64,000 nucleotides of DNA. It comes from a virus. The position numbers and the translations under genes are program-made. Below the pieces are notes generated by a model that was given only the letters and a program-made list of their open reading frames with translations, had not been told where the DNA came from and searched no databases. This document shows, piece by piece, positions 19,405-60,621 of this stretch (position 1 is its first letter; every line of letters starts with the position of its first letter). Location of the stretch: the IMG/VR virus record IMGVR_UViG_3300027801_002517, positions 64,001 to 128,000 of that record. One strand, written 5' to 3'.

Positions 19405-20694
19405 TTAAAATAATTCTTTTATACGCTTACCACCATTGACCATACCAAACGGTCTACCTTCAGCGGAATGAAGTTCTTGGTGAGTATTAATATTTAAAGA
19501 TGTTAAAACAGTTTCCGCTAAATCTTCTGGAGTATAACAACCTCCCACACACGACATTCCAGTTCTATCGGTTTCGCCCACGCACATTCCTGAATTTAAT
19601 CCACCACCACTCAGTAATAAACTAAATGCTGCCGGGAAATGTCCACGTCCCCCGGCACCTGCATCAATCTTTGGAGTCCTACCAAATTCCCCAGTGACTA
19701 ATACCAAGGTTTTATCTGACAACCCACGATCTGCAAGATCAGCAAACAAAGTAGAGATGGCAGAATCTAATGGTGGTAGTAATTCATCTTTAAGTAATCG
19801 GAAGTTCTCATCATGAGTATCCCAGTCAGTATGCTGAATAGTCACACACCTCACACCAGCTTCTACTAAACGGCGAGCCATTAAACAACTCTGACCTAGT
19901 GTACTTCTACCATACTGTTCTCTAATTTTAGCTGGTTCACGATCAATGTCAAATGCCGCCTTGGCTTCTGCTGATAGCATTAGAGTTTTGGCAGACTCTC
20001 TAAATGCATTAAAACTATTTGCTTTACGATTTGATCTAACTGAAACTTCCTTCGTTCCTTCAAACTTAGATAGCTGACGCCTCAGCTTTTCCCTAATTGC
20101 TATTCTATCATCGGGCAAATCAAACGGTGGCACAAGATCTGGTACAGAAAAACTTGGTGAATTAGGATCTGCCGCAATGACAAATGGAGCATATGATGAT
20201 CCTAGATATGCAGAACTACCACTCCTATGCATAGTAGGTAAACAAATATAAGGAGGCACAGATCCGATACCACCTTTTTCGTGAGCAATAATAGACCCAA
20301 AGGATGGATTGTGATTATTTGGCATCTGTTTAGACTGAAATGTTGGATTGGGCTTGTACCCAGTCAATATATAATGATCACCAGAACCATGATTAGAGTC
20401 ACTATGTGACATAGATCTAACTATTGAGAACTTGTCTTGCTGTTGTGCGAGCAAAGGAAGATGTTCTGTTATATGTATGTCTGGCACACATGTTGAAATT
20501 GGTGAAAATTCTCCACGATATTCAAGAGGAGCATTCGGTTTCATATCAAACATGTCGATACTACTGGGACCACCTTTTAGAAATACAATAATGAGAGACT
20601 TATCAGAAGCTTCAGCCACCTCAGAAGCATACGAACTCATAGGCAAAAACAATGAAGCCGCTCCACCCTTCAAAAATTTTCGTCTGGTAGTCAT
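19405..20694 (-). CDS. DUF1501-family protein with a Tat-like signal
   Basis: TRRKFL, IVFLKGGPSSIDMFDMKP, LMARRLVEAGV, WDTH, GEFGRTP motifs of the Planctomycete-expanded DUF1501 family. Confidence 0.85.
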   Translation of the reverse strand: MTTRRKFLKGGAASLFLPMSSYASEVAEASDKSLIIVFLKGGPSSIDMFDMKPNAPLEYRGEFSPISTCVPDIHITEHLPLLAQQQDKFSIVRSMSHSDSNHGSGDHYILTGYKPNPTFQSKQMPNNHNPSFGSIIAHEKGGIGSVPPYICLPTMHRSGSSAYLGSSYAPFVIAADPNSPSFSVPDLVPPFDLPDDRIAIREKLRRQLSKFEGTKEVSVRSNRKANSFNAFRESAKTLMLSAEAKAAFDIDREPAKIREQYGRSTLGQSCLMARRLVEAGVRCVTIQHTDWDTHDENFRLLKDELLPPLDSAISTLFADLADRGLSDKTLVLVTGEFGRTPKIDAGAGGRGHFPAAFSLLLSGGGLNSGMCVGETDRTGMSCVGGCYTPEDLAETVLTSLNINTHQELHSAEGRPFGMVNGGKRIKELF

Positions 20695-35420: not shown

Positions 35421-36074
35421 TTTTTCTTCTTTCTTTTACCAGATTGTTCAATCTTACCAATGAAACAATAGTAACATAAAGGCTCAGGTAAGAAATCGAA
35501 AACTCTTTTAAAATGTCTTACAGTACCATTCCTATCTCTTAGCATATAATGTTCTACTTCTCTACCTTTAGCACCTAATTCAGAACCATGAGTAAAAATT
35601 TCTCCACCGTATCGAAGCTTAAGAATAAAAGCCCAACAATAACAATTCCCAACGCAGTACATCCTATGTATCTCCATCCAAATATTCGTAGAATCGATCC
35701 ATGAGTCTATCGTAAGTATTAGAGTTCCTCAAGCTCCCTGCTATAGTCTTGTAAAGTTTCTTAGGGAATAAGATCATACCATGTTGCTCAAACTTGTCAA
35801 TAGGTATTTGCTTTATTTCTTGAGAATCTTTACACACAACCATCTTTTTGATTTTTGGTTTTAGCTGAACTGTCCAATCTTCAATGCTAACCTTAAATCC
35901 TTTAGCCATACACTCCCCTGTTAACCATATAAATAAGTAATTACCAATGCAATTCCACAAATAATAAAAGTAAATGTGATACCAATCCCCAACCCAAATA
36001 TCATCATCATAATATATTGATCAAGTATTCTTTGTATCTTTTCTGGCTTTGGCATATTAGGCTCCCGTAAAGAG

Positions 36075-36341
36075 TGGAGATGGGGGGAATCGAACCCCCG
36101 TCCTGTATAACCACAAATAATAATCTCATTCACATGTTTAGCCTCTAAGAGGCGATCTCAGCTTATACGACAGTATATCCAGCTTGGGTTTACAGGGTGC
36201 TAGACAACCCCTACTGCTACGCAGCGAGTGCAAAACTAGTAGTTTTAGCATCTATTGTTTAGTCAGCTTTTTACGAGGCCCACTGACCAACCTCGACATG
36301 CGATCATTACCATTAATTATCAGTCAATTCCAGTCATCCCC
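36075..36341 (-). ncRNA. ssrA: tmRNA, compact (267 nt); tag peptide (A)AKTTSFALAA at 36249-36217
   Basis: 5' GGGGATG pairs with 3' CATCTCC-A with G3:U; T-arm GGGGGTTCGATTCCCCC; pk1 (CGAGG/CCTCG, GTCAG/CTGAC); tag ends FALAA-stop. Confidence 0.92.
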
Positions 36342-38494: not shown

Positions 38495-38566
38495 TGGGAA
38501 TGCCCAGATTCGAACTGGAATCAAATGTTTAGAAGACATTTATGTTATCCGTTACACTACATTCCC
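38495..38566 (-). tRNA. tRNA-Arg(TCT)
   Basis: Acceptor GGGAATG/CATTCCC, anticodon arm AATGT-CTTCTAA-ACATT, TTCGAAT loop; CCA not encoded. Confidence 0.85.
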
Positions 38567-38605
38567 CAATTAATATTATAGTTGAGTCATTGGTAATGTG
38601 AAGGG

Positions 38606-39580
38606 TTATTCTGAAAAATCTCCATAAAATGTGGTAACATTTTTTTGCCAATATTGATTTAAACCAGTTACATCACGGGAATCATCTAAGGGACAGTAAA
38701 CATTCCCTAAAAAATTAATATATTCCTGAATATCTTCAGTGTCTCCACCGTGTTGTTCATATCTATCCCAGTTTTTCTGTACAGTGGCGGCACACCAACC
38801 AGCCTGAGATCTATATGTAGGATCTACATCGGGATGTAAAATACCATACTCTCTACCTTCAGCACCATTTTCTGCATACCTAATAGCCGCCACAAGAGGT
38901 GCTAATTTAGTATGGAGATCTGGTCTAATATTTGATTCAATAGCTTCACAGAAATCTCCTAAGCCATCTGTGCCATCCTTGTCTTGCAATTTTTGTTCAA
39001 ATGTTACTAATATTGAATTTGGACTAGGAAGTTTTACTTTAGGTTTATCTTCTGTGCCTTCATCTTCATCTGCATATCTCATCTTCAGTAATGTATATTT
39101 TAACTTGTCGTGCTGAATTGTTAGACCATAAGTAAGTCTTTTAATCTGCGTGGCAATTTCTTTTGCATCATAAATAGCATCTGATATTTGATATACTGTA
39201 TCCTCATCAGGTAAATCTATCCAATCAGGATTTTTTTCTCTTTCAAGAGGCCAAAGGGAAGTACACTCAGGACAAAGAAATCCCTGTTTGTCATCTGAGT
39301 TATGACTGTCTTGATAGTGGGTAAATCTCATAAGCAAATCTGAATTATAAAAAATCACATTAGTGGCATTTTCAAGTTCTTTATAGATCTGTTCATTACC
39401 ATCGTGTAAGGATTGCTGGTTAACATACCTGTCATCACATCTTTGTAAAAAGAGATAGAGATTTACAAGGATCATAATCAATAATGATAACTGCAAACAT
39501 CTAAATTCAACTTTATGTCGGCCTGTTTTAGTTTCTTGTTCTTTAGTCATAATTCCTCTTTCTATATAATTATCGTCCAT
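38606..39580 (-). CDS. Membrane-anchored protein with a possible lysozyme-like C-terminal domain
   Basis: N-terminal TM; LVAAIRYAENG...YGIL...YCP...WQKNV resembles lysozyme-superfamily catalytic Glu helix. Confidence 0.4.
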   Translation of the reverse strand: MDDNYIERGIMTKEQETKTGRHKVEFRCLQLSLLIMILVNLYLFLQRCDDRYVNQQSLHDGNEQIYKELENATNVIFYNSDLLMRFTHYQDSHNSDDKQGFLCPECTSLWPLEREKNPDWIDLPDEDTVYQISDAIYDAKEIATQIKRLTYGLTIQHDKLKYTLLKMRYADEDEGTEDKPKVKLPSPNSILVTFEQKLQDKDGTDGLGDFCEAIESNIRPDLHTKLAPLVAAIRYAENGAEGREYGILHPDVDPTYRSQAGWCAATVQKNWDRYEQHGGDTEDIQEYINFLGNVYCPLDDSRDVTGLNQYWQKNVTTFYGDFSE

Positions 39581-39920
39581 ATTTATCTGAAAGTCTTACG
39601 ATGTCCCCTTCGTCACATTTTCCTCCTTGTATTTCATAAATTTCAAGAGCTTCGTCTCCAGTATTCTTCACCATGTGTGTTTCAGTGGGTAGAATAACAA
39701 TGTGGTCACCTTCGGAAATAGATAGTTCGGAATTATCAATAGTAATAACACCTTCTCCCGATGCAATAAACCAAAATTCCATACGTTCTTTATGATATTG
39801 TTCGGATAATTGCTGGTCGGGATCTACTATAATTCTTTTAAATACAACTTTTTTATGCTCTGGTCGATAAATATCAATATAATACCCCCAAGGCTTCTCA
39901 ATTAACTTATGCGTTGGCAC
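39570..39920 (-). CDS. Cupin, mannose-6-phosphate isomerase type II-like
   Basis: KPWG, LSEQYH..R.E.W, H...N, EIQ.G...E.DIVRL.D.YGR signature; likely GTG start at 39920. Confidence 0.8.
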   Translation of the reverse strand: MPTHKLIEKPWGYYIDIYRPEHKKVVFKRIIVDPDQQLSEQYHKERMEFWFIASGEGVITIDNSELSISEGDHIVILPTETHMVKNTGDEALEIYEIQGGKCDEGDIVRLSDKYGR

Positions 39921-39921
39921 C

Positions 39922-40263
39922 TTACAACTCCTCAATACGTTTAGCCTTGTCATCAACAACAAGATCAAAATGTGGCTTTTCATCACCAACTTTTAACTCA
40001 TGAAACTTACAACCCCAACTGTTCAATTGAGTCAATGTGTGATTGCGATAATTCTTGCCAGAAGTTGAACCACGAGCTGTCCAATAAATAATTTTCCATC
40101 CCTCATCATATAGATTATTAATTTTTGCTATATTATCATGACTTGGTTCTGATAAATCATAGCGACGTTCACCAGAATAAAAACAAATTGTTTCATCAAT
40201 ATCTATAAATGCAACTTTTTGTTTGCCTTCCGGGCTAAATCTTGCTGCCTCATGAAATTCCAT
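39922..40263 (-). CDS. HAD-superfamily phosphatase
   Basis: FIDIDETIC, WTARG, KP, VDDKA motifs. Confidence 0.75.
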   Translation of the reverse strand: MEFHEAARFSPEGKQKVAFIDIDETICFYSGERRYDLSEPSHDNIAKINNLYDEGWKIIYWTARGSTSGKNYRNHTLTQLNSWGCKFHELKVGDEKPHFDLVVDDKAKRIEEL

Positions 40264-40582
40264 ATTAATCCCTTCTAATAGTTAAATCTATAATTTCTCC
40301 ACTTTCAGTTAATTCCACGAAGAAAGAATCGCTTAAATTGATAGTGGGTACTACTTTATCTTCTTGAGTATATAAAGTCCAAACATCTATTCTAAAATTA
40401 TTCTGAAAAACATTTTTAGCGTCTATTTTGAATTTATTTTTAAGAATATTTTCAGATACATTGTTAGAAATAAATTCATGCAACAATTCAGAATCTATAT
40501 TCTTGTATACTTTTTCTGGTGTATTTTTTTTATTAATTGTCTTCTTAGGTTTTTTAGGATTCTTCAACACTTTATTTCCTTT

Positions 40583-40831
40583 TTAAGATTTATTTTTTTT
40601 CCATGAAAAAAGATTGTTCAGATATTTTTTTCGTTTGGAACAATTACATTCTTGTAATCCAAACCAATTTTTAAATCTTTCCTCGGTAATTCCAAACCTC
40701 GTAAGAGTTTCCTCTAATGCATCACCCAGTCCTGTTACTTCATTCTCTTTAGAGTTAAACTTTACACCTTTAGCATTTAATTCATTTATAACTAAATCCA
40801 TTTCGTGTCTAATTTGATTTTGGTCGCTCAT
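40583..40831 (-). CDS. Small conserved phage protein
   Basis: GLGD...CNCSKRKKYLN motif. Confidence 0.5.
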   Translation of the reverse strand: MSDQNQIRHEMDLVINELNAKGVKFNSKENEVTGLGDALEETLTRFGITEERFKNWFGLQECNCSKRKKYLNNLFSWKKNKS

Positions 40832-41458
40832 TTATTCTCCAATCTTTATAGATTAGGATGGACAGTACTCTGTATTTTGCTGGTAAATTAATTCATAATA
40901 CAGGACTTGGTTTTCCTCTTCAGAAAAAACAGCTTCTCCGTATAAATATCCTTCATCTATTAATCTATCAACAACTTCACGCTCAATATCATTTAAGTCA
41001 CTGATATCCATACCTTCAAATCTCTTCGCTATCCAATCCAATGTCGTCATCATTTGTTATATTCCTATTCCTGAAGAAATCTAGTGCGTTTAGTATACCA
41101 TCTACCGCTATGATTAAATCCCTGACTTGATTTGGAGTCATTTCAATGCCGTGTAGTGCAAAGAAATCCCTTGTTTCATATTCATCTCCACTATTATATC
41201 TTAATTGTTCCTCTGTATTAACCAAAAAAGATACCCAATCTAAAAAAGCCAGTTTTGTCCTCTCATTTTGTATTATTGACTGAAGTTCGTCATTTAATTT
41301 TTGAAAAAGATATTCATCTTCATCTTCATCTTCGGAATAACTCATATTAAATCTTTCTCATAGAGTATGATACTATGTAATTATACCCGAAATAGTATAT
41401 TATGATGGAAAAATAAGGATATGCTGATGAATTAATAGCAACATATCCTTAATTTAGT

Positions 41459-41770
41459 TTATCTCCATAATCTTAAACGATAAGTTCCATATTTTCCAGT
41501 AGCAACTGCGTCTGCTACTAATCTCATTCTTCTTCTGGGTATGCAGGTGCCTAATGTTTTTGGGTTTCGACCCTTACGTCCCCATCCACATCCTTCAAAT
41601 CTGGCTCCATGTTTCCACGGACTACAAACTGAATAAGGAGGATGCCACCTGTAATTTTTATCGGCCATATACTGGACTCTGACTTGAGCTACCTCTTGTA
41701 AGGTCATTTCTTTCGGTTGATTTGCCAAGACAATTGATAGAACTAATGCAGTAAACACATATATCTCCAT
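41459..41770 (-). CDS. Secreted protein, reduced CAP-like, Planctomycete-style
   Basis: Signal peptide; AQ.R..YMA...H...FEGCGW...TC pattern. Confidence 0.45.
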   Translation of the reverse strand: MEIYVFTALVLSIVLANQPKEMTLQEVAQVRVQYMADKNYRWHPPYSVCSPWKHGARFEGCGWGRKGRNPKTLGTCIPRRRMRLVADAVATGKYGTYRLRLWR

Positions 41771-41867
41771 ATAATGAAAAAAATATCATCCTGATATTAA
41801 TACACTTATAACCCACACAAAAACAAAAGTCACAAGCAGTTCAATTGTAATAATTACTATGTCTTCT

Positions 41868-42098
41868 TTATTTAACTTCATTATTGTCCATCATTATTAA
41901 AACTTGTTCTGCTCCGTACAAAGTAAACTCCTGACAGACATCACATCTACGTTCTTGAGCATCTGGTTCAATACCAAGGCTACTAGCCCCACAATCCACA
42001 TTGATACAGAATCCCTCATTCATATCACGAGCTACTGCATCAAATACTTCTTCAAAATCAAGAGTCCAATCTGGATGGTTTGGCTTAGACATTTCCAT
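41868..42098 (-). CDS. Small zinc-finger phage protein
   Basis: GFC...CG...IEPDA...CDVC...YGAE. Confidence 0.55.
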   Translation of the reverse strand: MEMSKPNHPDWTLDFEEVFDAVARDMNEGFCINVDCGASSLGIEPDAQERRCDVCQEFTLYGAEQVLIMMDNNEVK

Positions 42099-42660
42099 AT
42101 ATATTCCGTTCTGTAATAATCTTATCCATATAAATATCGTGAGATGCTACTGGAATCTCTTCAAACATTTGACATTCAAACGCCAAGGCCACTAATGGTG
42201 TACCCTGTCGAGCATTCTCCAGCAGCTTATCATAGTATCCTTTACCGTGACCCATCCTCGCACCAGTAGCATCAAACCCTACGCCCGGCACCATTATAAG
42301 ATCTAATTCTTTTATGTCAACCTGTTTCTGAGGAAGACCACGCAATTCTTGAGAAGGCTCTAAGATACCATACATACCTGTTTCTAATTCGTCCATACTC
42401 TCAAGATGGAAAAGCTCTAGCTCTCCATCGTCATTACACCAAGGCACCACTATATTTTTGCCACTACTAAGTGCCTCTGGTAGAGCATGACGAGTCCTGA
42501 CCTCACTCCTTACATCAATATAAAACATGACAGCAGATGCATCGGCATATTCATATAGAGACATGAAAGTATCTACAATCGAACGACTTAGTTTGTCTTT
42601 GTCTTCTTGTTTGTTTCGGTTGTCATGGGCAGTTCGCCTCAGTTCATTTTTATTTATCAT
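42085..42660 (-). CDS. 5-formyltetrahydrofolate cyclo-ligase
   Basis: KNELRR, SEVRT, YGILEP, VPGVGFD..GARMGHGKGYYD, HDIYMD.IITE. Confidence 0.9.
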   Translation of the reverse strand: MINKNELRRTAHDNRNKQEDKDKLSRSIVDTFMSLYEYADASAVMFYIDVRSEVRTRHALPEALSSGKNIVVPWCNDDGELELFHLESMDELETGMYGILEPSQELRGLPQKQVDIKELDLIMVPGVGFDATGARMGHGKGYYDKLLENARQGTPLVALAFECQMFEEIPVASHDIYMDKIITERNIYGNV

Positions 42661-42685
42661 AGTATGGTACTCTTTGAATTCCTGT

Positions 42686-44110
42686 TTATACCGTTTGTAA
42701 AACTTTATTTGTATATTGTTCTTCAAACAATAGTTTTTGAGAATAGGTTTTTTTGTGACACTCTTTACACAACATTGTACAATTTTTCGGAACTGTTAAT
42801 CCTCCCTTACCATGAGGGATTATATGATGAGCATCCATATCATCTATGTCAAATTGCTCATCACAATCAGAACAGTATCCATCTTGTTTGTGGTATTGTT
42901 TTTTTCTATCTACTTCAGAAAATTTTCGAGATGGATCTTTATCTGTTTTGTCAGTACAACAATCAAGGTGATCGTGTAAAATTTTATTTTGTAGCCCTCT
43001 ATTGACTTTGGTATGCCCAGAAGTATTTACACGCAATGAGTATTCATCAAGATCATTTTTAACTTTGGTTGATTTTATCTCCGCTGCTGTCCTTATGTCT
43101 ACACTTAAGTCTTTTAGATGGTTTAGTAATTTTTCTTTATCAATTTCTCGACCTTCTAGTATCCAGTCAATAATTACAACATTTAATGCATAAAAATTTG
43201 AACCTTTTGCAAATCTAGTTGATTTAAGTCCTACTGTTTGATCAAAGAGAAATTTCATAATCTCTAAACTTTTCTTGATATTTTTTATAAGTTTGAACAT
43301 ATCTATATCTTCTTCATTGTTTTTAAAATATTTAAACACGTTCGCAACAGCCCACCCATTTAAATGTTCTTGATTATGAATGTAATATAAAAGTGCTGTT
43401 AAATATCTACCATCCCACTGTCGAATAACCGAGGATGTTGATGAGGCTTTAATAAGCATATCGGAATATGGTCCATCAACACCAGTAAATGGCCGGAGGA
43501 AATCCTTAACTAAGGGTGTATCTCTATATTTTGATCTTAGTTTTTCTTGATCATTAAGATTTTCGCTTTGATTATATGATTGAAATAAAGCATCGATAAG
43601 ATTTTTAATCTCAATCTCATTCACCCCATATGTTTCATATATAATTACAGTTATCTGCTTATCAAGAAAACTTTTTCGGTTCGACTCATTAACGTCTTCC
43701 CATTTCTTTGCTTCTAGTTTATCAATAAAAAGATCAGGTAGAGTCGATAACTCTTTAGATAAAGAATAAATGTTATGTATATAATCTTTTATACTAGAAG
43801 CTCTCTGTAGTCCATCAATTACTTCATAGTAAACTTCGCAAGCTTCCGGTAAAAGATTTTTGCGTATACCATACCAATTATCATCATATGGTTTTTTAGT
43901 TTCACTATCTCTATATCTTTTCACAAGATAAAGTGGGGGTATAGAAATTCCGCTCCAAATGGAGTTAATGAAAGCAATCTTTCTGTCGGCTGCCCATACT
44001 TCATCTCTTTGGTGATCAGGATTAAGAACATAGTCACCGCTATCTATCTTCTTTAATAGATTTTCAATAGAAATTTTTTCGTCTGAAAAATCATAGTTTG
44101 GGAGTTGCAT
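42686..44110 (-). CDS. DUF262 (ParB-like) + HNH nuclease, GmrSD-like
   Basis: PDHQR..VW, IPPLY, VIDGLQR, LNDQE; C-terminal CxxC...AHHIIPH..GG.T..NCTMLCKECH. Confidence 0.8.
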   Translation of the reverse strand: MQLPNYDFSDEKISIENLLKKIDSGDYVLNPDHQRDEVWAADRKIAFINSIWSGISIPPLYLVKRYRDSETKKPYDDNWYGIRKNLLPEACEVYYEVIDGLQRASSIKDYIHNIYSLSKELSTLPDLFIDKLEAKKWEDVNESNRKSFLDKQITVIIYETYGVNEIEIKNLIDALFQSYNQSENLNDQEKLRSKYRDTPLVKDFLRPFTGVDGPYSDMLIKASSTSSVIRQWDGRYLTALLYYIHNQEHLNGWAVANVFKYFKNNEEDIDMFKLIKNIKKSLEIMKFLFDQTVGLKSTRFAKGSNFYALNVVIIDWILEGREIDKEKLLNHLKDLSVDIRTAAEIKSTKVKNDLDEYSLRVNTSGHTKVNRGLQNKILHDHLDCCTDKTDKDPSRKFSEVDRKKQYHKQDGYCSDCDEQFDIDDMDAHHIIPHGKGGLTVPKNCTMLCKECHKKTYSQKLLFEEQYTNKVLQTV

Positions 44111-44123
44111 AATTCATCCTTCC

Positions 44124-45200
44124 TTAATTTTTATTTCTTAACATCTTTAAACAAGATTTACCAATGGCGGTGCCGAGGCCACAAGGAACGGCATTACCTA
44201 TCTGTTTGAACGCCTGTCCCTTTTTACACTTAAACATAAAAGTATCTGGAAAAGACTGTAGTCTAGCCAATTCCCTGACAGTCATATGTCTTCCTTTTTC
44301 ATAGTGGGTAAACACTGCACCATGATTTTCTTTAACTGTGTTACACGGTTTATCGGGATGACATTTCTGATTGGCCTCACCATATCCAGAATAACTATCA
44401 CCGTATTCAGTAGCCATAATTTTATCTGGGACCGATGGGTCAGTCTTATAAGCTCTGAACTCATGTGAAAATTCAATATCTTCCTCAATGTCTTTTAGGT
44501 CATCTATCGCATCTCTAACGGAAACCCATTTCTCCAAATCACCCGTACCAGACTCGTTGTGTGTCTCATCTGGAAAAAGAACCTTGTTCTTAGACGCTAT
44601 AATAATAACTCTCTCTCTGTGCTGCGGCACACCATAATTGGAAGCTTTTAATACTCTTGCTTCAGCGTTATAGCCTAAATCAACAAATAGGTCAACCCAT
44701 TTATCACAGACTGAGAATGTATATTCTTTATATTTTTTAAGTAACTTACCACTACTCAGCTTCTTTGAATCTTTATTGATCTGTTTAAAAGTATCATCTG
44801 GAATATCAGATTCAAAATGATACATAGAAGCAAGACCTTTGACGTTTTCAATAACGCAAACATCTGGATCTACTCTCTCCACAATATCAAAATAATCAAA
44901 ATACAATTGTCCCCGATCATCAAATGGATCTCGCTTACCAGCATTGCTAAATGCCTGACAAGGAATTCCACCAAGGATAACTTTTACTTCATTATCAATG
45001 CAGGCTTTTACAATAACATCTTTTATAGTTGGATCGGTAATACTTCCTTCGACTAAGTTACAATGAGGATGATTGAACCTGAATGTTGAACATGCTGGCC
45101 CATCAAACTCATTAGCGACTCTGACCTGTAAACCATCTACCTTATCCATACCATAAGACATACCCCCACAACCGGCGAATAAATCTAAAACGTTATACAT
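44124..45200 (-). CDS. DNA (cytosine-5) methyltransferase
   Basis: DLFAGCGG, GIPCQAFS, IENV, PQHRERV, RELARLQSFP, IGNAV motifs. Confidence 0.93.
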   Translation of the reverse strand: MYNVLDLFAGCGGMSYGMDKVDGLQVRVANEFDGPACSTFRFNHPHCNLVEGSITDPTIKDVIVKACIDNEVKVILGGIPCQAFSNAGKRDPFDDRGQLYFDYFDIVERVDPDVCVIENVKGLASMYHFESDIPDDTFKQINKDSKKLSSGKLLKKYKEYTFSVCDKWVDLFVDLGYNAEARVLKASNYGVPQHRERVIIIASKNKVLFPDETHNESGTGDLEKWVSVRDAIDDLKDIEEDIEFSHEFRAYKTDPSVPDKIMATEYGDSYSGYGEANQKCHPDKPCNTVKENHGAVFTHYEKGRHMTVRELARLQSFPDTFMFKCKKGQAFKQIGNAVPCGLGTAIGKSCLKMLRNKN

Positions 45201-45216
45201 AGTTAATCTTCCCCTT

Positions 45217-45948
45217 TTAAATTAATATCTTGATGTTAGGGTCACAAGCCCGACCATAAAAATAATCCTTTGGTAATTTTAGATCAGACTCAAGACGTCT
45301 TAGTTGTTCTAACCTCAGTGTGAATTCATTAAACGTCGGAACAATATTCTTTAATCTTGAATTACCAGCGTGTAGCATAATTCTACCAGTAATTTTTTTT
45401 GACTTTGTACTCCACTTTCTACCGTCTGTACGCACTGGCTCCATCAGTACATTATTCAAGCAGTAATAATCAAATGATAAGAATACGATCTCTTCTTTAT
45501 TATGATCAAGATCATATTCTATTGTATAGACATAGTAGAATACCGGCTTATCCTTGTTATGTTTTTCTAAGCAGTTCAATAGGTTGGAATAGGCAGCAAT
45601 CCCACTCTCACCAGCATTCTTGCCATTCCGCCTGACTCTCCGTACCTTGAGATTGATGAGGATAATACAATCCTCTGTTTCTATAGTAAAATCATAGGGA
45701 GATTTGTTGTTGGCTTCTCTGGTAATAGTTGCTTTCTCCGTGGCACCGGACTTGATCATAGCTGCCTCAAAAATACAACCGAAAACGGAAGCCGAATCAA
45801 GTGGAGTATCTTCAAATATTAAATCATAGGGGCCTAACTTCAAAGGCATTGGCTCATAAAAAGTAAGTTGGCAATATCCGTGAAGATCAGACATTCTGTC
45901 CATCGCATCTGCTTTGATTAACTCTTGATATTCCAAATCATCAGTCAT
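45217..45948 (-). CDS. Putative restriction endonuclease (PD-(D/E)XK-like)
   Basis: FE...SPYDF...INLK pattern directly upstream of the C5 MTase. Confidence 0.45.
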   Translation of the reverse strand: MTDDLEYQELIKADAMDRMSDLHGYCQLTFYEPMPLKLGPYDLIFEDTPLDSASVFGCIFEAAMIKSGATEKATITREANNKSPYDFTIETEDCIILINLKVRRVRRNGKNAGESGIAAYSNLLNCLEKHNKDKPVFYYVYTIEYDLDHNKEEIVFLSFDYYCLNNVLMEPVRTDGRKWSTKSKKITGRIMLHAGNSRLKNIVPTFNEFTLRLEQLRRLESDLKLPKDYFYGRACDPNIKILI

Positions 45949-46452
45949 TTGTCAACTCCCTCACGTTCATTAACTTGAGCAATTACCAAAGCATCTAGCT
46001 CTGCAATAGAAAATTTTCCGTTTAGTTCAATACATTGTTCATTTTCTTTAGGGTTTGTTGTAATGATAGTCCTACCCATATGTTTTTCATGTAGAAACTT
46101 AATTAAATAATCAGTACACCACAAGTGTCGGCCAAACTTTTTTTGCATAGCGTTAATTAAAAAGTTACCATCTCTCATTTGTCAAGAGCCTCCATAATCT
46201 TTTCTGCTAAAAATTCTCGACCTGTCTCGCTACCGAGATTTATCTCCTTGTCGGCAACATCTTCTAATATTTTAATAATTCTATGATAGTAGGCCCAATC
46301 ATAGGTACGACTACACCCTACTCCTTTATCTGCGTTCTCTCTTTTTCGGTAATTGATCACGTTTATGTCTGCTGGGTAATGCTCACACCCAGTAATATAT
46401 CCACTAGGAGTATCATAACATATTGTTCCGCATTTTTCACATTCAAAGTTAC

Positions 46453-46851
46453 TCATTCGTCAACTCCCTCAAAGATATTTCCTACAACCACTTTAGAATA
46501 TCGCCAATTACGCTCTGCCCCACCGTGACGATCAGGATCTTTTTTACCTAGAAACATAGCATCTTCTTCGCAGTAGGTTATTGTGAATCTTTCTTTTCTG
46601 TCTCTGTATTGCCACTCTACAATATCCCCCTCATAAATCTCCTTACCATTCTTATCTTTCAATCCCGTATATTGCTGCACAAAGACTGTGGCATCAAAAA
46701 CATTTTCCCACAATGGCTTATCTTTTGTACCATAATTTTCATATACAGTTCCGTCAATGCCTATCATATACTTATCTGAATGTTCATCAGGATAGATTAT
46801 AGTTTTATCAGAATTTGTTTCGTGACATATGCGAAATTTAATCTCTCTCAT
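46453..46851 (-). CDS. YopX-family protein
   Basis: MREIKFR...QYTGLKDKNGKEIYEGDIV...VVGNIFE. Confidence 0.85.
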   Translation of the reverse strand: MREIKFRICHETNSDKTIIYPDEHSDKYMIGIDGTVYENYGTKDKPLWENVFDATVFVQQYTGLKDKNGKEIYEGDIVEWQYRDRKERFTITYCEEDAMFLGKKDPDRHGGAERNWRYSKVVVGNIFEGVDE

Positions 46852-47216
46852 TTGTCAAGTCCTATAAAGGTAAATAAGAGGGACTACTCACACCATGTGC
46901 TTCACATTCTTCAAGTAGTTCTTTCAATGCTAAATGGGCTTCAAGGTAAATCTGGTTTTCCATAGCAATTTTAATTTGCTTAACACTCGCTGGCAAAAAG
47001 AAATTCCTGATATTCATCCTCGTATTGGGATCATTACTTTTAATGTATGTATTACTCATCTTCCCACTCCTCAGTTATAATAAGCTCTGCTTCGCCTCGT
47101 TGTAACATCTCAATAAACTCTTGTTTAGCGTCTTCAAGAGCCTTTGCTTCTGAATCAGCAATAACGGCCCGCATACTGTCAACGCTTATGACGTAAGTCT
47201 TACTCATCTTCAACTC

Positions 47217-47747
47217 CTAAGTAGTTAGACAAACAGAATCAAGTCTATTATACCACCAATCGGGTGCTTGTCTACCTTTAATCCACTCGCATTGGATATT
47301 TTCCCGTTTATCGTAGAAATAATAATCACGATAGGCAGCAATAGAACAAGAGTTCTTGTATTCGTCTGGCATAGCTTGAGCAAATGGAGTCAGCTTACCC
47401 TCTGGAATAAGAGGGAACAGACTGCCAAGTACAGTAATTTGCCGCAGGCACGCATGTTCTTTCTTAAAGCGGAACTCAAACTCTTGACACAGAGCAATCC
47501 CATGCCAGAAAGACCACATATAATTCTCTCTGCTATCACCAACCCAGAGAGTTACCGGATGACGGTGGTAGCCCCCTTTGTGCGGCGTACCTGACTTGGT
47601 CAATGGCACTTGACTGTCTGTAGCACCATGACGACGAGCAGCACTAACCAACATCTGTGTAGCCTCTACACACATCTTGGGTACATGTTTGTCGCAATGC
47701 ATACGAGCAGCAATCTGAGGATCTTCATCTAATGCAAAGATGTTCAT
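47217..47747 (-). CDS. Pyrimidine-dimer DNA glycosylase/DenV-related protein
   Basis: MNIFALD...HCDKHVPKM..E..QML, HP...W, FAQAMP, AYRDYY motifs. Confidence 0.7.
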   Translation of the reverse strand: MNIFALDEDPQIAARMHCDKHVPKMCVEATQMLVSAARRHGATDSQVPLTKSGTPHKGGYHRHPVTLWVGDSRENYMWSFWHGIALCQEFEFRFKKEHACLRQITVLGSLFPLIPEGKLTPFAQAMPDEYKNSCSIAAYRDYYFYDKRENIQCEWIKGRQAPDWWYNRLDSVCLTT

Positions 47748-48281
47748 AGATCAAATTTTCCTAAATATGGATTTTTCTTCCAGTATTCAAAATCTTTGGC
47801 AGAGTCATCCCAAAGTTGTTTTTGTTTTTTGTCAGGACTATTTTTAACTTCATCCTGCTTCTTTGTCAACCACTCTTTTACAACATTTTGAAAGTTTGGA
47901 CTAAATCCACCTTGCTTGATCCAATCTGAGTAGTCGAAGACCGCATACTTTAAGTCCCACAACTCCTCACCTAAATCCCGCTTATCTAAATCGGAATTAC
48001 TCACTGCATCAAACAAATCAAGTATATTTTTCAAAGTTGCTTCAGGGTCCATTAGTTATTCTCCTGTATTAGAGGATCAGTACGGTGATAATTTTGAATG
48101 CCAAGTGAAAATACACTTTGTTTAAACATCGGTTTTTCAAGGTTTTCAAGCTGTCGCTGTCTCCCTTCTTCAATGAGAGCAAGACCCATTAAAGAACACA
48201 GAACAATAAACATTATTGATAGAACCGTCTTTCCAATCTTATCCATTTGTCAACTCCTATTTATAATAAAACTTACTACAG

Positions 48282-48366
48282 TAGCCGAAGCGGGACTCGA
48301 ACCCGCACGCCCATTACGGGCACAGGATTTTAAGTCCTGAGTGTCTGCCTATTCCACCATCCGGCC
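48282..48366 (-). tRNA. tRNA-Leu(TAA)
   Basis: Anticodon arm CAGGA-CTTAAAA-TCCTG, long variable arm, GGTTCGAGTCCC. Confidence 0.9.
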
Positions 48367-49418
48367 ATTCGATCCGATCACATTGGGTTAGACATTCAGT
48401 CTTCAACTGAATCAAGAAAATGCCCAATACCCTGATGTAGACCAATCTCATAAAAATCATCGAAACTACAATTTTTTCGGTGATGATATTCTTCACCAAG
48501 TTCATATCCTTCTGAGCCTGAATCCTCACAGATCCGTACTCCAAGAAATAAACCGCGACCATCACCATAATTATTCATAACAAACACCGCTGTTCCATAC
48601 TTAAACCAAGTATTCTTTTTAGCTATGTGCTGCCTGCCCCAGTGACTACTCATTGTAATCTACTCTATAGTCAGCGATAGCCTGAACTTCGCCGTTATCT
48701 TCAACTTTATATTTTGTTAACAGTTTATATTCCTCCCCGGAAATGTGATACTTTGTCAAATGTTGTAAGGCATCTTCTTTTGTGTTGCATCTAGGAGTTA
48801 CAGCCTCACATAACCCTGTGCTATTACAAATTACACCCTGCCACATTGTACTACCCTCCCCTATAGCATCACTAATTCAAAACCCTGATCTTTAATATAT
48901 GTCAAACACTCTTCTTCAACAGCGTCGGCGGTATCAGGATCATAATCATCATCCGTGCCATCAATATGGCTATCTTCCCATCCAAGAGATTCAGCCTTAC
49001 TTAAAACTTCTTCAAAACAACTATAGATAAAAGTTTGCATTAATTTTTCCAATGTTTAACCATTTCTTTTCGCCAGCGTTCCACGTCGGTATCTGGCATC
49101 TTATTCTTTTTCTTCTTTGGTTCTGGTTCTGGTCTTGATTTACACCATGCTATGGTAAACAGTAGTGCCATTATTGTCAAGGACAATTTTATCATTGAGG
49201 AAAACAAACCTCCTGCCAATCCTGAAATTCTTTATCGTCTTCAGGCTCAACAAAGTATAGGCTATACTGATTGCAAAGTTCCACATAAGCCTCTGACTTG
49301 TCCATACTGGGATAAGTGGAAACTTCGCTGTTGTCAGAAATCTCTTCTAGTAGATTCTTAATCGCGTCTCTCAAGTCTTTCATCTTAAATCTCCAAAAGG
49401 TTTGTTGTTTGTGTCTGT

Positions 49419-49446
49419 ATCATATCATCGACATCAACCCTGTCAA
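49419..49446 (-). promoter_or_regulatory. sigma70-like promoter
   Basis: TTGACA-16-TATGAT upstream of a run of small genes. Confidence 0.6.
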
Positions 49447-49879
49447 CCCTTAATTTGTTTTTTTAATAAATCGCTGATTTAATAGATCTGTTAATGAAGA
49501 TTCGTGATCAATAGGCTGACCATCCACACCATACAAGACCTCTACAATATCATATTCACTGCAAATCACATTCATTTTATCTGTCACCAACTCAACCATC
49601 TTTCTACCATCAAAATCCCCTGATGTCTCTAATAGCCAAATCTTTGCTATCTTTTTATCAGAGAAAATAGTAACAGCCATACATACTTCAAATCCACCAT
49701 CACTAAACAACCACAATTCATTATTGTAAATATTCCTAGACAATTTATTCAACAACGTAGATCTGAATTTTATATCAGTCTGTCGCATCTTTGACAATGC
49801 TAATAGAAAACTATTTACACTATTCTTGTCAATTTTCTTCCACATTCTAACCTCCCTAATATATAGGTATACCACGGTT

Positions 49880-50230
49880 TATAGGGTCATATTAGAGCAT
49901 AGCCGTTAAGCTTACCCCTAAAGTCCCTTAGTAATTTATATAGATTAAAACTCAAGTAATAAAAATTTCAATTCGTCTTTCGACGTGACCCACCAAGTTA
50001 CTCCTCAGTAGAGCTTGGATTCCCTTGAAAACTAATTACTTACGGCAAAGCTTGTGAAGCTATCCGGTCATCCCTTAACATCTTTACAATGATAAGTTAT
50101 TATTCTGTTTGGTTACAGAATGGGCCTGAGTTCTACGTTACTGTTATAACGCCCCTGATCAGATCTAAATTCACATTAATGGCAAGGTGAAATCCAGACA
50201 GGCTCTTACGCTACTGCCCCGTACCCTTCT
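49880..50230 (-). ncRNA. Candidate structured non-coding RNA (unclassified)
   Basis: ORF-free; several helices including CGTC-GAAA-GACG and G:U pairs favouring the minus strand. Confidence 0.4.
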
Positions 50231-50857
50231 TTATAATGATCCAAAAGGTGATCAATAAACTACATCTATCCAATGTATTATAGCTGCCTATTCACAAGAG
50301 TGATGGATTTATTGGTTTTTTCTGTGGTTTTCTTTTTTAATATTTTAATTGTGGGTTTTTCTCCCAATAGTGAGAATAATAGAAAACATTTCTGGGGATT
50401 ATTACCCAATATAGTTATACGTTTTATGGTTATTGTATGTCAAGGCTATCTTATCCTAAATATGCACTTTATCAATGAAAACAAAGCCCTAATAATACTA
50501 CTAATATAATGACTAATACAAGGATTACTGTTGACATGAGGATTTTTTAAGTTGTGATAAGTTTATAATTTCAACCACGACCCCATACAGCAAGCCAAAA
50601 CCCAGTAAAAACATTGGTGGAATTGATATTTCGGCCTCACTCGACGCGGTCGAACCGTGTGCATGTGCGGCCCAAATACGGCCTCTAGACGGCTGATTCT
50701 GGTGATTCATAAGACTCAAAAATGGGGCAAAAGTGTTTTTTTTTACGGGGAAACACTTCAACATTCTCGAAAAAGCCAGTGTTTTTGTCATTTTTGGGAA
50801 ATCGCTATATGAGACGATTAGCTGAGACACGGCCCAAATGAGGCGAAATGGCCCTTT

Positions 50858-51110
50858 TCGCTGACTATACGTTATCGGGCGATGCTTATAGATTGACTGG
50901 GACATCACCCCCTTTTCGCTGACTGTCAAACAACTGGCGAGTATGATAGATTGGGCTTGACACAGCAATGTAAAAATGCTATAATTCAAATAGTCCCAAA
51001 TCTCGCTGACTGTTGAACACCTGGCGATGCTATAGGATCAGATGGGACAAATGGTCCAGTTTTCGCTGACTGTCTAACAAGTGGCGATGCCCGAGGATCG
51101 GGCGGGACAA
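50858..51110. repeat. Four degenerate direct repeats TCGCTGACT-N11-GGCGA-...-GACA
   Basis: Copies start at 50858, 50916, 51003 and 51063. Confidence 0.8.
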
Positions 51111-51116
51111 ACGAAA

Positions 51117-51189
51117 TGGGTCCAGTAGGACTCGAACCTACAACCAACGAATTATGAGTTCGCTGCTCTAACCATTGAGCTATGGACCC
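51117..51189 (-). tRNA. tRNA-CAT, probably Ile2 (lysidine type)
   Basis: GGGTCCA/TGGACCC, anticodon loop CTCATAA; lacks initiator features. Confidence 0.85.
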
Positions 51190-51198
51190 CAACCTGAA

Positions 51199-51273
51199 TG
51201 ACCCTAGCGGGATTTGAACCCGCGTTGCTGGAATGAAAATCCAGTGTCCTAGACCTAACTAGACGATAGGGCC
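51199..51273 (-). tRNA. tRNA-Glu(TTC)
   Basis: GGCCCTA/TAGGGTC, CTGGA-TTTTCAT-TCCAG. Confidence 0.9.
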
Positions 51274-51279
51274 GCATAA

Positions 51280-51353
<74 letters not shown>

Positions 51354-58419: not shown

Positions 58420-58900
58420 ATTCTACAGTTCAAAGCAGCGAATGTCAATCGCCTTGCCAAAAATCTTTGTGGTTTTTCGATGATGGTCGCGAGCGAAGAT
58501 GATAGCGATTTCTTCATTCTCAGCAGAGATGATGCCTGATGTAGAAACTTCGCTGTTACCTGAAAGCGGTACGATTGTGAAAGAGTAGTGAAAGCGTTTC
58601 ATTGTGTTGCCTTGTGTGTTGTTTGTTGTTTGTGATAGTGTATTGTACCATATGGTTCTGGTTGTTTCAACCCTAATTCGTGTAGATTTCGTAAGTATTG
58701 CAGTTTTTGTGAGATTTCTTGTCTGATACGTTTACTGTGAGTTTGTGTGTTGGTTGGGGAAGAAACACAGGTTTGTCTGATGCATGTACTGTCAGTTTGT
58801 GTGTTGGTCGTGGTAGTGGATTGATCATTGTGTTTCCTTTGTTGTGTTGTCTTTGTCTTGTGTCTCTAAGTATTATATCGGCATCATTGCCGTTTGTCAA
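58420..58900 (-). promoter_or_regulatory. Three sigma70 promoters (58420-58448, 58642-58670, 58872-58900)
   Basis: TTGACA-17-TAGAAT; TTGAAA-17-TACAAT; TTGACA-17-TATAAT (the last overlapped by GCCGATA). Confidence 0.8.
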
Positions 58901-58940
58901 TAGCTTTGCACAAGAAAATAAAAGATATTTCCCATATTGA

Positions 58941-59022
58941 CCTAAGTCATTGCTATCAAACGACTTACGTCGCCGAAAGCCCACTAGTATCGCTCTAAGT
59001 CTATACTGTACAACGACTTATA
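58941..59022. repeat. 82-bp double-palindrome element, copy 6
   Basis: CCTAAGTCATT-7-AACGACTTACG / 24 bp / TCTAAGTCTAT-7-AACGACTTATA. Confidence 0.88.
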
Positions 59023-59194
59023 CAAATATAGTGGTAGGGGTTTTATCTTCAAAGATAGAATGGTGTCTTGCTGTGGAAAAAGCCAGGGTGGTGCAAACAT
59101 AATTCACCAGCACCAATATCAATGTCCTACCCAATCTTACCCCCTCGCCCCTATTTATTTCGCTTGGTGTTTAGGTAGAGTCAAGATACAACCC

Positions 59195-59520
59195 GAGCAT
59201 ATAGCTACAACTGGTTACTACCAGTAGCTATTAACTTACCATCTGTGAGCGAACTGCAAAAGGATCATGATTACCACTTGATGTTTGGGAGGATGCTTAA
59301 ACCTCAACTCCTGAATTTTCAGTAAGTCCTCTGTCGCCAGAGCCTGATCCATTCTGTCCGATTGTTACTCTTATCGAGCAACGCTCGTAATTCTAATATG
59401 AGTACGGGTAATACTCATGCTAAACTCCAGACCATTCAGGTAATTTCTTTAAGCATTGCAGCTCGCCGGTCACACAACTGATTCGTCCACAGGACGAGAT
59501 ATTTGCCGGACATGGTTCAA
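59195..59520 (-). ncRNA. Candidate structured, pseudoknotted non-coding RNA (unclassified)
   Basis: ORF-free; 11-bp and 8-bp long-range helices, a GCGA tetraloop hairpin and at least four more hairpins. Confidence 0.55.
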
Positions 59521-59841
59521 AAAGAAATTTCCCTCTTGATAAGTCACTATCTATAATATCCACAAGTAACAGTTTTACAATGATTTTTTATGAAAATTTA
59601 CCATTTTAGAATCTTTTATCCATCAAAACTACCATTTCGTGTATATTACTATTAGGAGGTACAACATGAAAAAAGACCCAGAAGAAATTACAACTATAAA
59701 AACCGTCGTTGTTGCGAGAGCCACTGCTGATCTCTGCGATGAAATTCTCGATGATTTACAAGTTCCTGATCCACCAGATAAATCTATGGCTTCCCTAGTC
59801 GATGAGGCTGACGAATCCAAATTATCGAGGAGGAACGACGA

Positions 59842-60621
59842 GTGAAGAATAAACAAATCTATAATCATAGATCGCATTCACCAGCACGAGTCATTGATGA
59901 CGGTATTGAACTCATGTCACCTAAGAATGCTAATGACATAGCACCATCAGATATTGATTTTTTAAATAATTGTAATCTGTTAAGTGATACAATTCCTGCA
60001 GATACAAATTTTTTCTATTCGTTGCGATGTAATGATTCTACGACGGAAAAACTGCTTTTTCTTGAAACGGGCTTTGGGGAATTAAAACACAGAGACGGTA
60101 GAGTATTTCTACAACGAGAATATATTTTCACTGACTTTCACCCAGATTATAATGAAATCCCCGTCCCTACTAAGAATCATTTGAAGCCCCTGCCTGATTT
60201 TGTTAAAAACTGCATAATTTCCACACATTCACCAGCAGAATATCAAGAATTACTCATTGAAGAGCATTCTGTTGTATGTTCTATAGATAAATTTATCCCA
60301 ACAATAGTTCCCCTAGAGGAAGCCACCCTACTGGGTCGCCTTGATGGACGCATACAATCTATAGACAAAGATGAACTCAAGTTTATTCTGGGTGACAACA
60401 TTAAAATCGCCGTCGAGGAATCAAAAAGTCCCCTAAAGTTACAAACGGATGAATTTTCTGTAAATGGTAAGAATTCTATTATAATGACTGACCAAATTCA
60501 GTTAAGACCTATGAGATCAAGGCCAAAGCGATTTTCCGTAGGTTCCCTATATTACAATAGGGGTAAAAAGACATTTGAGTTTCATGACGGGGACAAATGG
60601 AGAACATTACTAACAGAATGA
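59842..60621 (+). CDS. Hypothetical protein
   Basis: Long ORF after the strand switch; C-terminal GSLYYN...FEFHDGDKW motif as in virion/fibre proteins. Confidence 0.5.
   Translation: MKNKQIYNHRSHSPARVIDDGIELMSPKNANDIAPSDIDFLNNCNLLSDTIPADTNFFYSLRCNDSTTEKLLFLETGFGELKHRDGRVFLQREYIFTDFHPDYNEIPVPTKNHLKPLPDFVKNCIISTHSPAEYQELLIEEHSVVCSIDKFIPTIVPLEEATLLGRLDGRIQSIDKDELKFILGDNIKIAVEESKSPLKLQTDEFSVNGKNSIIMTDQIQLRPMRSRPKRFSVGSLYYNRGKKTFEFHDGDKWRTLLTE

Follow-up and report, generated by a model that had tools for sequence, protein, structure and literature searches.

Evidence for a large structured RNA family encoded between the divergent transcription units of an environmental phage

The window analyzed in this study (64,000 nt, bases 64001-128000 of a 157-kb IMG/VR virus record) contains an 840-nt gap that separates leftward and rightward transcription units, and the question raised by this locus is whether the gap encodes a functional RNA and, if so, what such an RNA would do. 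All genes up to ~59.6 kb were found to read leftward, and a rightward operon begins at 59666 with a 59-aa ORF that has an AGGAGG ribosome-binding site, followed by a 259-aa ORF, the gene of a sigma-like protein and further genes. The preliminary description had placed an unclassified pseudoknotted RNA on the minus strand at 59195-59520; we found the RNA to be there but to be longer, extending from about 59548 to 59186. We refer to it as family F1, and its coordinates are given for the minus strand of the window. The gene content of the phage includes a split DnaE-type polymerase, DnaB, RecA, ribonucleotide reductase and a small sigma-70-region-2 protein, and ARAGORN placed a tmRNA and five tRNAs at other sites of the window. 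Among 50,697 isolate phage records, no match was found for the locus (blastn) or the sigma-like protein (tblastn), and the DnaE-like protein showed at most 30% identity to any isolate phage. The phage is an uncultivated marine one and, according to these searches, has no close cultured relative. The 169-aa neighbor was also considered as T4 gp55; Pfam and PHROGs gave Sigma70_r2 only, with no gp55 family, and the label 'T4-like' was dropped for this phage because of that result.

F1 was present in ~24 metagenomic and viral contigs, all environmental, with eight full-length sequence types in the following four groups: group A comprises the window type (the window, L118 and L120), L112 and L109; group B, L002 and L108; group C, L189 and L194; and group D, L192. 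When 80 loci gathered via the sigma-like protein were searched with nhmmer, the F1 stretch was detected only in two near-identical IMG/VR contigs of the L002 type. Further contigs were reached in a 5.8-billion-protein collection via relatives of the sigma-like protein (72-83% identical) and the 59-aa ORF, and the two much more divergent groups, C and D, came from sigma-like relatives at ~61% identity. The groups were connected by chained homology, which was direct from A to B and showed E-values of ~1e-9 from B to C and ~1e-12 from C to D. Exact-pattern scans of viral contigs with GTTGTGTGACCGGCGAGC and two-part patterns revealed only two L002-type contigs as true members, the other matches being due to chance and unrelated by nhmmer. 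The same type of scan gave one more contig, identical to L002, in metagenomes and no F1 match in genome contigs; the scanned genome contigs therefore give no indication that a host or a prophage carries F1. The same cassettes without the RNA were seen in relatives whose sigma-like proteins are more distant (e.g. L062 and L075). In all carriers, F1 occupies the same slot, flanked by the first early repeat element on one side and the diverging late operon on the other, in the same orientation, and neighboring cassettes hold tiny protein genes in the corresponding position.

The span covered by the nhmmer homologues (59548-59186) starts immediately past the -10 box and ends with an invariant tail; the length is thus ~360 nt for the window and 300-430 nt for the relatives. 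The promoter proposed earlier, TTGTAA-16-TATTAT at 59580-59553, was recovered by a consensus scan (TTGTAA at 59580-59575, a 16-nt spacer and TATTAT at 59558-59553), and we infer that transcription starts at ~59548-59546, 2-3 nt ahead of helix P1. Groups A and B share a 46-nt block with both promoter hexamers in identical or almost identical form, a separate TATAAT box occupies this place in each of groups C and D, and a sigma70-like promoter was located 2-20 nt upstream of P1 in each group. The stretch had been described as ORF-free, which agrees with our finding that it holds only short ORFs and that no ORF is conserved across the homologues. A 38-aa ATG ORF of group A was considered as a coding small ORF and rejected, as it is lost in L109 and in groups B-D.

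On the downstream side, no intrinsic terminator was found in 58700-59800, so the 3' end of F1 has no terminator mark, and the fold of the region after the tail (59040-59200) was no better than shuffles (z = +1.0). Since no terminator directly follows the tail, the transcript may be longer, with F1 as its 5' portion only. In the window, a distinct and widely repeated inter-cassette element with a consensus promoter lies downstream of 59166, and the leftward gene that follows has its ATG at 58828 and its own perfect TTGACA-17-TATAAT promoter at 58900-58872. The repeated element with its own promoter was the next downstream feature in five of the eight types (three of group A and both of group C), and this is probably also the case in L108. 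In L002, a homing endonuclease ORF (HNH_3 plus a GIY-YIG-like domain) is inserted between the RNA and the inter-cassette element; this ORF starts ~30 nt past the tail and has a ribosome-binding site but no promoter, which indicated that transcription passes the tail. The gene downstream of the RNA in L192 has its own TATAAT box. The different downstream neighbors of each type were counted in favor of a separate gene and not a leader of one ORF.

A fold model was obtained with RNAalifold on groups A and B and was later confirmed by groups C and D. Its conserved long-range helices are P1, P2, P3 and P4, and S1/S2 and H6-loop/tail are its candidate conserved pseudoknots. P1 joins the 5' end to a 3' segment, with GACUUAUC (59545-59538) pairing with GGUAAGUU (59240-59233); double-sided changes were present in four of its eight pairs (groups A, B and C), and the corresponding helix in group D is GAUUAG/CUAAUU. 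P2 is formed by a pyrimidine-rich 5' strand, GGG..UUUCUUUUUG (59533-59518), and a purine-rich 3' strand, CUUAAAGAAAUUACCU (59453-59438). Both sides were changed in five of its 14 pairs, and P2 was the minimum free energy (MFE) solution for the isolated 5' domain in five of six types. The core of this domain (59509-59459) is an H-type pseudoknot inside P2, in which S1 (CCGG 59509-59506 with CCGG 59469-59466) is combined with S2 (CAGUU 59480-59476 with AGCUG 59463-59459). We found S1/S2 to be paired in 100% of cells with three double-sided pair changes, the variants being CUGG/CCAG in L112 and L109 and GAGGU/ACCUC in L108. The loop of the pseudoknot contains the hairpin UCGUCC/GGACGA (59497-59483), which is missing in L112, L109 and L108 and is replaced by another hairpin in L002. 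Similarly, the hairpin GUUGCUC/GAGUAAC (59382-59364) is found in group A only, and the 36-nt block that holds it is absent from groups B, C and D. Both hairpins had been listed in the preliminary description and are indeed present in the window, but they are optional expansions that several homologues do not have.

P3 (9 bp) encloses hairpin H6, P4/P5 and a three-hairpin junction. Its 5' strand, GUCUGGAGU (59432-59424), pairs with GCUC-A-CAGAU (59250-59241), the bulged A of which is kept in all four groups. The sequence of P3 is invariant in groups A and B, and the helices UUAGAAG/CUU-A-CUAA, CUAGAAG/CUU-A-CUAG and CCAGAGG/CCU-A-CUGG were observed in groups C and D; double-sided changes were present in three of nine pairs when group C was added and in five of nine when groups C and D were included, with 100% pairing in the eight types. 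H6 (59418-59398) consists of AUGAGUA, the loop UUACCCG (59411-59405) and UACUCAU. Its stem showed double-sided changes in five of seven pairs across six types, with group C added, and in four of six counted pairs across all eight; the core A.CC of the loop is invariant, and ACCCG within the loop is complementary to the tail.

The P4/P5 and hairpin junction (59359-59251) is composed of P4 (GGAC 59359-59356 with GUUC 59254-59251), P5 (GGAUCA 59350-59345 with UGAUCC 59267-59262), the hairpins H8 (CUCUG-GCGA-CAGAG, 59342-59329), H9 (59328-59306) and H10 (59305-59289), and a conserved single-stranded CCCAAACA.. linker. P4 occurs as GGAC/GUUC, AAAU/AUUU and AACC/GGUU, and P5 as GGAUCA/UGAUCC, CAGCA/UGCUG and CAGUAG/CUACUG. 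Seven different stems were observed for H8, in which all five pairs showed double-sided changes, and the H8 loop is always of the GNRA type (GCGA or GUAA). H6 and H8 had been proposed from the window sequence, and covariation bore them out. As evident from independent MFE folds of six divergent types, the 3' domain enclosed by P3 has the same topology in each.

Beyond P1, a two-tier 3' hairpin, UAGCUA-CUGGU-AGUA-ACCAG-UUG-UAGCUA (59230-59202), occupies the same place with a differing sequence in groups A and B and was less clear in the isolated group C fold. The UAGCUAC..GUAGCUA stem noted earlier was counted as supported by covariation. The invariant tail UCGGGUUGUAU (59196-59186) contains CGGGU (59195-59191), which is complementary to the H6 loop at 59409-59405. 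Its UCGGG is invariant across the eight types and the flanks vary; 3-5 bp between the H6 loop and the tail are possible in every type, and covariation was looked for in this pairing and none was seen. The complementarity suggests that the H6-loop/tail pairing is a candidate long-range pseudoknot.

Two helices emphasized in the preliminary description fared differently. Both are present in the window as described, an 11-bp helix between GCGAGCUGCAA (59466-59456) and UUGCAGUUCGC (59259-59249) and an 8-bp helix between UGCUUAAA (59455-59448) and UUUAAGCA (59301-59294), but neither proved to be a feature of the family. The 11-bp closing helix showed no compensatory pair and was restricted to group A, being absent from groups B, C and D. 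Group B has lost the inner five pairs of this helix, and at alignment columns 95/305 three sequence types (L109 and the two of group B) do not form the C-G pair; L109 shows a C.A mismatch in the helix. The 3' strand of the helix overlaps those of the covarying P3 and P4, and the pairings are hence in competition. The 8-bp pseudoknot helix was paired in 73% of cells and is complete only in the lineage of the window, where two substitutions (AG to UU) made this helix and weakened P2; the site reads AUGCAG(A/U/G)AAG in the other sequences. GGAUCA/UGAUCC does cross the 8-bp helix as claimed and covaries as P5, but the pseudoknot partner is not conserved. For the window sequence, the free MFE fold, which contains the 11-bp helix, was ~16 kcal/mol better than the consensus-constrained fold, and for L109 and L108 the consensus fold was essentially the MFE fold. 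Because the consensus fold is less stable by this amount in the window, the window RNA may populate another conformer, and a predicted alternative with the 11-bp helix may exist in group A, not as a feature of the family.

Several statistics pointed to a real RNA on the minus strand. The single-sequence MFE was -102.1 kcal/mol, which was better than that of shuffled sequences, with z = -3.5 on the minus strand versus z = -2.7 on the plus strand. At the level of the alignment, RNAalifold gave z = -7.0 for the sense and z = -6.25 for the antisense direction against column shuffles. The whole model contains 63 consensus pairs with 96.8% of cells paired; slid controls were 33-49% paired. In the comparison that included groups C and D, which gave double-sided changes in five of nine P3 pairs and five of five H8 pairs, pairing was 99.4%. 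Double-sided changes were present in 17 of the 63 pairs versus 7.7±1.9 in shuffles, and none of 500 shuffles reached the observed value. G.U pairs accounted for ~59 of 437 cells (~13%) and non-pairs for 3.2%. The frequent G.U pairs and few non-pairs indicated that the minus strand is the RNA strand, as the opposite strand would read C.A mismatches, and they count against a DNA-level explanation; the GNRA loops are also readable on the minus strand. We are highly confident in the F1 gene, its fold and its conservation. The proposal that the locus encodes a new large structured phage RNA is supported by the lack of an Rfam family and a conserved ORF, by one architecture in eight types found with nhmmer and by a promoter in each group, and the novelty concerns the family and the fold.

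To place F1 among known RNAs, we used Rfam 15 (4227 models, including RNase P, group I/II introns, 6S, tmRNA, GOLLD, ROOL, HEARO, OLE, pRNA, EAR and riboswitches). At gathering thresholds, nothing was found in 58700-59800 of the window or in 12 homologous loci, and at E≤10 the matches in 58700-59800 were at chance level only, the best being the ROSE_3 heat-shock element with 17.8 bits versus a threshold of 43. The motifs in a catalogue of ~10,000 viral candidate RNAs (PMC10690425) are no longer than 29-151 nt. The preliminary description had seen no hallmarks of RNase P, group I introns or 6S RNA, and our comparison led to the same view. Bacterial RNase P RNA was rejected because the sole P4-like pairing, CCGG/CCGG, spans 25-45 nt in the 5' domain and there is no Rfam match. 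A group I/II intron was rejected because the flanks are a promoter (5') and a repeat element (3'), with no split ORF and no intron model match. The consensus fold is multi-branched with two domains, which together with the lack of an Rfam 6S match led us to reject 6S RNA. With regard to HEARO and the IscB omega-RNA, a nuclease ORF is adjacent in the L002 type only, where it is an HNH_3/GIY-YIG homing endonuclease and not IscB, and is absent from the other seven types; this class was rejected on these grounds. A riboswitch was dismissed given that no conserved ORF follows the RNA, the downstream partner differs by type and there is no terminator; ARAGORN detected no tRNA-like RNA or tmRNA at 59.2-59.6 kb.

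A different ~340-nt ORF-free RNA, which we termed F2, was found at the same place and in the same orientation in sister-clade phages whose sigma-like protein is 56-58% identical (example locus L009:1603-1948), and it has its own promoter. Across ten F2 sequences, 50 pairs were 98.6% paired and 27 showed a double-sided change; these pairs include a 9-bp pseudoknot, CCUGUGAAG/CUUCACAGG. A 17-nt F2 motif revealed 29 true members among 39 IMG/VR matches, placing F2 in at least 29 IMG/VR contigs, and was absent from the bacterial genomes scanned. F1 and F2 are similar in slot, orientation, size, possession of an own promoter, GNRA hairpins and long-range helices; the 9-bp helix of F2 resembles P3 of F1 (UCUGGAG/CUC-A-CAGA), and the short motifs AUAGUGAC, UAAGCAU and ACCAUG are common to both. 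In contrast, helix order and nesting differ, and the P3-like helix of F2 is a pseudoknot across two other long-range helices. No profile similarity was found between F1 and F2, even with a widened F1 profile, and the two were not equated; the short motifs and the P3-like helix are all that they have in common, and they may or may not be homologous. Neither F1 nor F2 is in Rfam 15. The presence of F2 as a positional analogue in the sister clade was counted in favor of a stand-alone RNA gene.

With respect to function, the best explanation overall appears to be a stand-alone non-coding RNA gene that acts in trans early, to which we assign an even chance. Judged from architecture and position only, the product would be a compact RNA particle acting in trans early in infection; we infer this function, which we place slightly short of an even chance, from three features: closure of the architecture by P1, invariant nucleotides in the junction and the loop, and the early position. 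Driven leftward by its own sigma70-like promoter, F1 would be the unit that opens the early region and would represent the cargo of the first early cassette, in the slot where neighboring cassettes carry tiny protein genes. By joining the 5' end to a 3' segment, P1 closes a multi-domain shape that is divided into a 5' domain (P2 and the small pseudoknot) and the P3-closed 3' domain (H6 and the three-hairpin junction, with one hairpin GNRA-capped), and the invariant 3' tail can pair with the conserved H6 loop. Such a particle could bind a protein or another RNA, either a host factor or a phage partner, with the invariant junction and loop nucleotides as its working surface, and would be a host-takeover product made of RNA instead of protein.

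F1 may alternatively be a cis-acting leader of the early leftward transcript that controls read-through of terminator-like repeats, either by processive antitermination similar to that of HK022 put or as a riboswitch-like switch. It directly follows the first leftward promoter and is not closed off by a terminator, and transcription runs through the RNA into the promoterless endonuclease ORF of L002. Mutually exclusive pairings are also available, namely an AAGAG/CUUUU hairpin versus P2 and, in group A, the 11-bp helix versus P3/P4, and pairing by hand shows the tail CGGGU to be complementary also to ACCCUGGC, a segment of the downstream element that directly precedes UUUUU. We nevertheless consider a leader unlikely. 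The downstream cassettes each have their own consensus promoter, such as that at 58900-58872, so read-through is not needed for cassette expression, and relatives L062 and L075 keep the cassettes without the RNA. Groups B, C and D lack the alternative 11-bp helix, and neither an ORF nor an expression platform is conserved past the tail. The size and the closing P1 also differ from known antitermination RNAs, which are 70-120 nt long and are not known to have a closing P1.

A catalytic RNA, that is, a new ribozyme that processes itself or acts in trans, for example by releasing itself from the early transcript or by acting on host RNA, appears quite improbable. F1 has features that large ribozymes typically show, namely a length of 300-430 nt, pseudoknots, a GNRA loop, a conserved bulged A (in P3) and invariant nucleotides at the junction; the absent terminator would fit 3'-end formation by processing, and the phage already carries translation-related RNAs (the tmRNA and five tRNAs). 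However, Rfam gave no ribozyme family, either at gathering thresholds or at E≤10, the flanks hold neither split exons nor the halves of an ORF as in group I/II introns, and the P4-like CCGG pairing is confined to 25-45 nt and does not span the whole molecule as in RNase P. The position of F1 at the divergence point of both transcription directions would suit an RNA for replication or packaging at the early/late boundary, either a primer (similar to ColE1 RNA II or T4 oriF/oriG) or a multimer similar to phi29 pRNA, for which the invariant tail and the complementary hairpin loop could pair between molecules. This role is very unlikely, as the GC skew does not clearly turn at the locus, Rfam gives no match to pRNA, the genes for terminase and portal are far from the RNA on the late strand, and closely related phages have no RNA at this locus, contrary to what one would expect of an origin or packaging component. 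The explanation to which we give the least credence, bordering on the negligible, is that there is no functional RNA and that the pattern reflects chance or signals at the DNA level, for instance sites bound by proteins or hot spots of recombination between cassettes. The neighboring region is indeed full of repeated DNA elements, which nhmmer revealed to be shared by dozens of related contigs. Against this stand the compensatory double-sided changes in at least nine helices, the frequent G.U pairs with almost no C.A, and the GNRA loops kept while all five stem pairs of H8 change; moreover, F1 is single-copy, and nhmmer detected no paralogue within the window, 49889-50229 included.

Beyond the stand-alone trans-acting RNA preferred here, a more far-reaching and still doubtful proposal is that F1 represents a new class of large pseudoknotted phage RNA that is the machine itself (a ribozyme or the core of a particle) and the first early host-takeover product, with the sequence-unrelated F1 and F2 placed at the same cassette position in sister clades. 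If this were true, F1 and F2 would point to a hitherto unknown RNA-based infection step in a widespread group of uncultivated marine phages. Few natural RNAs of >300 nt with complex covarying tertiary folds are known, and nearly all of those that are understood are ribozymes, RNP cores or, recently, RNA-only assemblies. With F1 and F2, RNA biologists gain two new and concrete subjects for structure probing, cryo-EM and screens for activity, and phage biologists are given a hint that host takeover in an uncultivated marine lineage includes an RNA effector.

A comparison with known systems revealed partial similarities. RNase P RNA is similar to F1 in that P1 joins the ends, in being pseudoknotted and in its length, and the phage with F1 also carries tRNAs and a tmRNA. 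The F1 motif G-U-CCGG / CCGG-C resembles P4 of RNase P with its bulged U, and AGAUGAAU is present in group B as it is in RNase P J18/2. The CCGG strands of F1 are, however, 25-45 nt apart, no equivalents of the specificity domain are recognizable, and there is no Rfam match at E≤10. The HK022 put RNAs and EAR are 70-120 nt long with two hairpins or one pseudoknot; like F1, they are folded RNAs that directly follow an early promoter and precede operons with terminators, but F1 is three to five times larger, is closed by P1 and is followed by cassettes that have their own promoters. The pRNA of phi29 belongs to protein-primed podoviruses and measures about 120-174 nt. Like F1, it is a phage RNA whose early promoter lies where two modules meet, and F1 could likewise multimerize through its complementary loop, although F1 has no Rfam match to pRNA and no link to a portal. 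GOLLD and ROOL are large ornate RNAs that are often encoded by phages or prophages and have no known biochemical function. F1 shows no sequence or structure match to them, does not adjoin tRNA genes and is shorter (300-430 nt versus roughly 580 and 800 nt), but it shares with them the character of a large, complex, pseudoknotted orphan RNA that is phage-encoded, contains many covarying helices and forms its own transcription unit.

The sister phage clade carries, at the same locus as F1, a second covarying RNA family, F2, with no detectable sequence similarity to F1. The F2 RNA is ORF-free, has a length of approximately 340 nt and is preceded by a promoter of its own; its members were found on the minus strand of L009 (1603-1948) and L006 (2015-2377) and in 27 more IMG/VR contigs (L131-L168). 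Double-sided changes were present in 27 of the 50 F2 pairs. The structure includes a 9-bp pseudoknot, CCUGUGAAG/CUUCACAGG, with which a local hairpin, ACCUGU/ACAGGU, competes. A comparison of F2 with Rfam revealed no match. A separate ncRNA candidate in the window (49889-50229, minus strand) showed no similarity to either family in nhmmer searches with the F1 and F2 profiles.

Directly downstream of the F1 RNA lies a widely conserved inter-cassette element (window 58835-59166, minus strand), which contains the motifs AGGGGCGA, GAUUGGGUA, ACCACCC.G..UUUU and GAAGAUAAAACCCC, followed by two TAAGUC..GACUUA palindromes and then a consensus promoter. Dozens of related contigs contain this element, and a single locus often has several copies. 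Contigs of the L002 type have an insertion directly after the F1 tail, a gene for a free-standing homing endonuclease of HNH_3/GIY-YIG-like type (L002:1870-3350, minus strand). The ribosome-binding site and start of this gene, ATTATCGAGGAGGAACGACGAGTG, match without a difference the start region (window 59821-59844, plus strand) of the 259-aa ORF in the rightward operon, which points to capture by recombination. Optional F1 hairpins at two differing sites also have a 14-nt stretch in common, CUCACUGCGUUCGA, which is located in the apical loop of S1, a strand pair of the 5' domain, in L002 (~3630-3650, minus strand) and between hairpin H6 and helix P4 in L109 (~1180-1210, minus strand); this hairpin looks like a movable module.

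Upstream of F1, the plus-strand 59-aa ORF (window 59666-59845) has an AGGAGG ribosome-binding site and metagenome homologues (P0121-P0124) with 80-92% identity. This ORF is probably the real gene, and the 82-aa minus-strand ORF (window 59629-59877) is probably spurious.

Elsewhere in the window, all on the minus strand, we found genes for a tmRNA (tag AKTTSFALAA) and for five tRNAs (Arg-tct, Leu-taa, Met, Glu and Asp) at 36072-36341 and 38495-51353, and a DnaE-type polymerase split over two ORFs (4457-8328), one containing PHP+NTPase (6691-8328) and the other the finger domain (4457-6058), with a 226-aa ORF (6018-6698) between the two halves. The window also encodes a DUF1501 protein (19405-20694, minus strand), and L192 carries a pilin-like gene with N_methyl and DUF1559 (SBP_bac_10) (421-1605, minus strand). 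Both families are typical of Planctomycetota, and these two genes may offer a hint as to the host.
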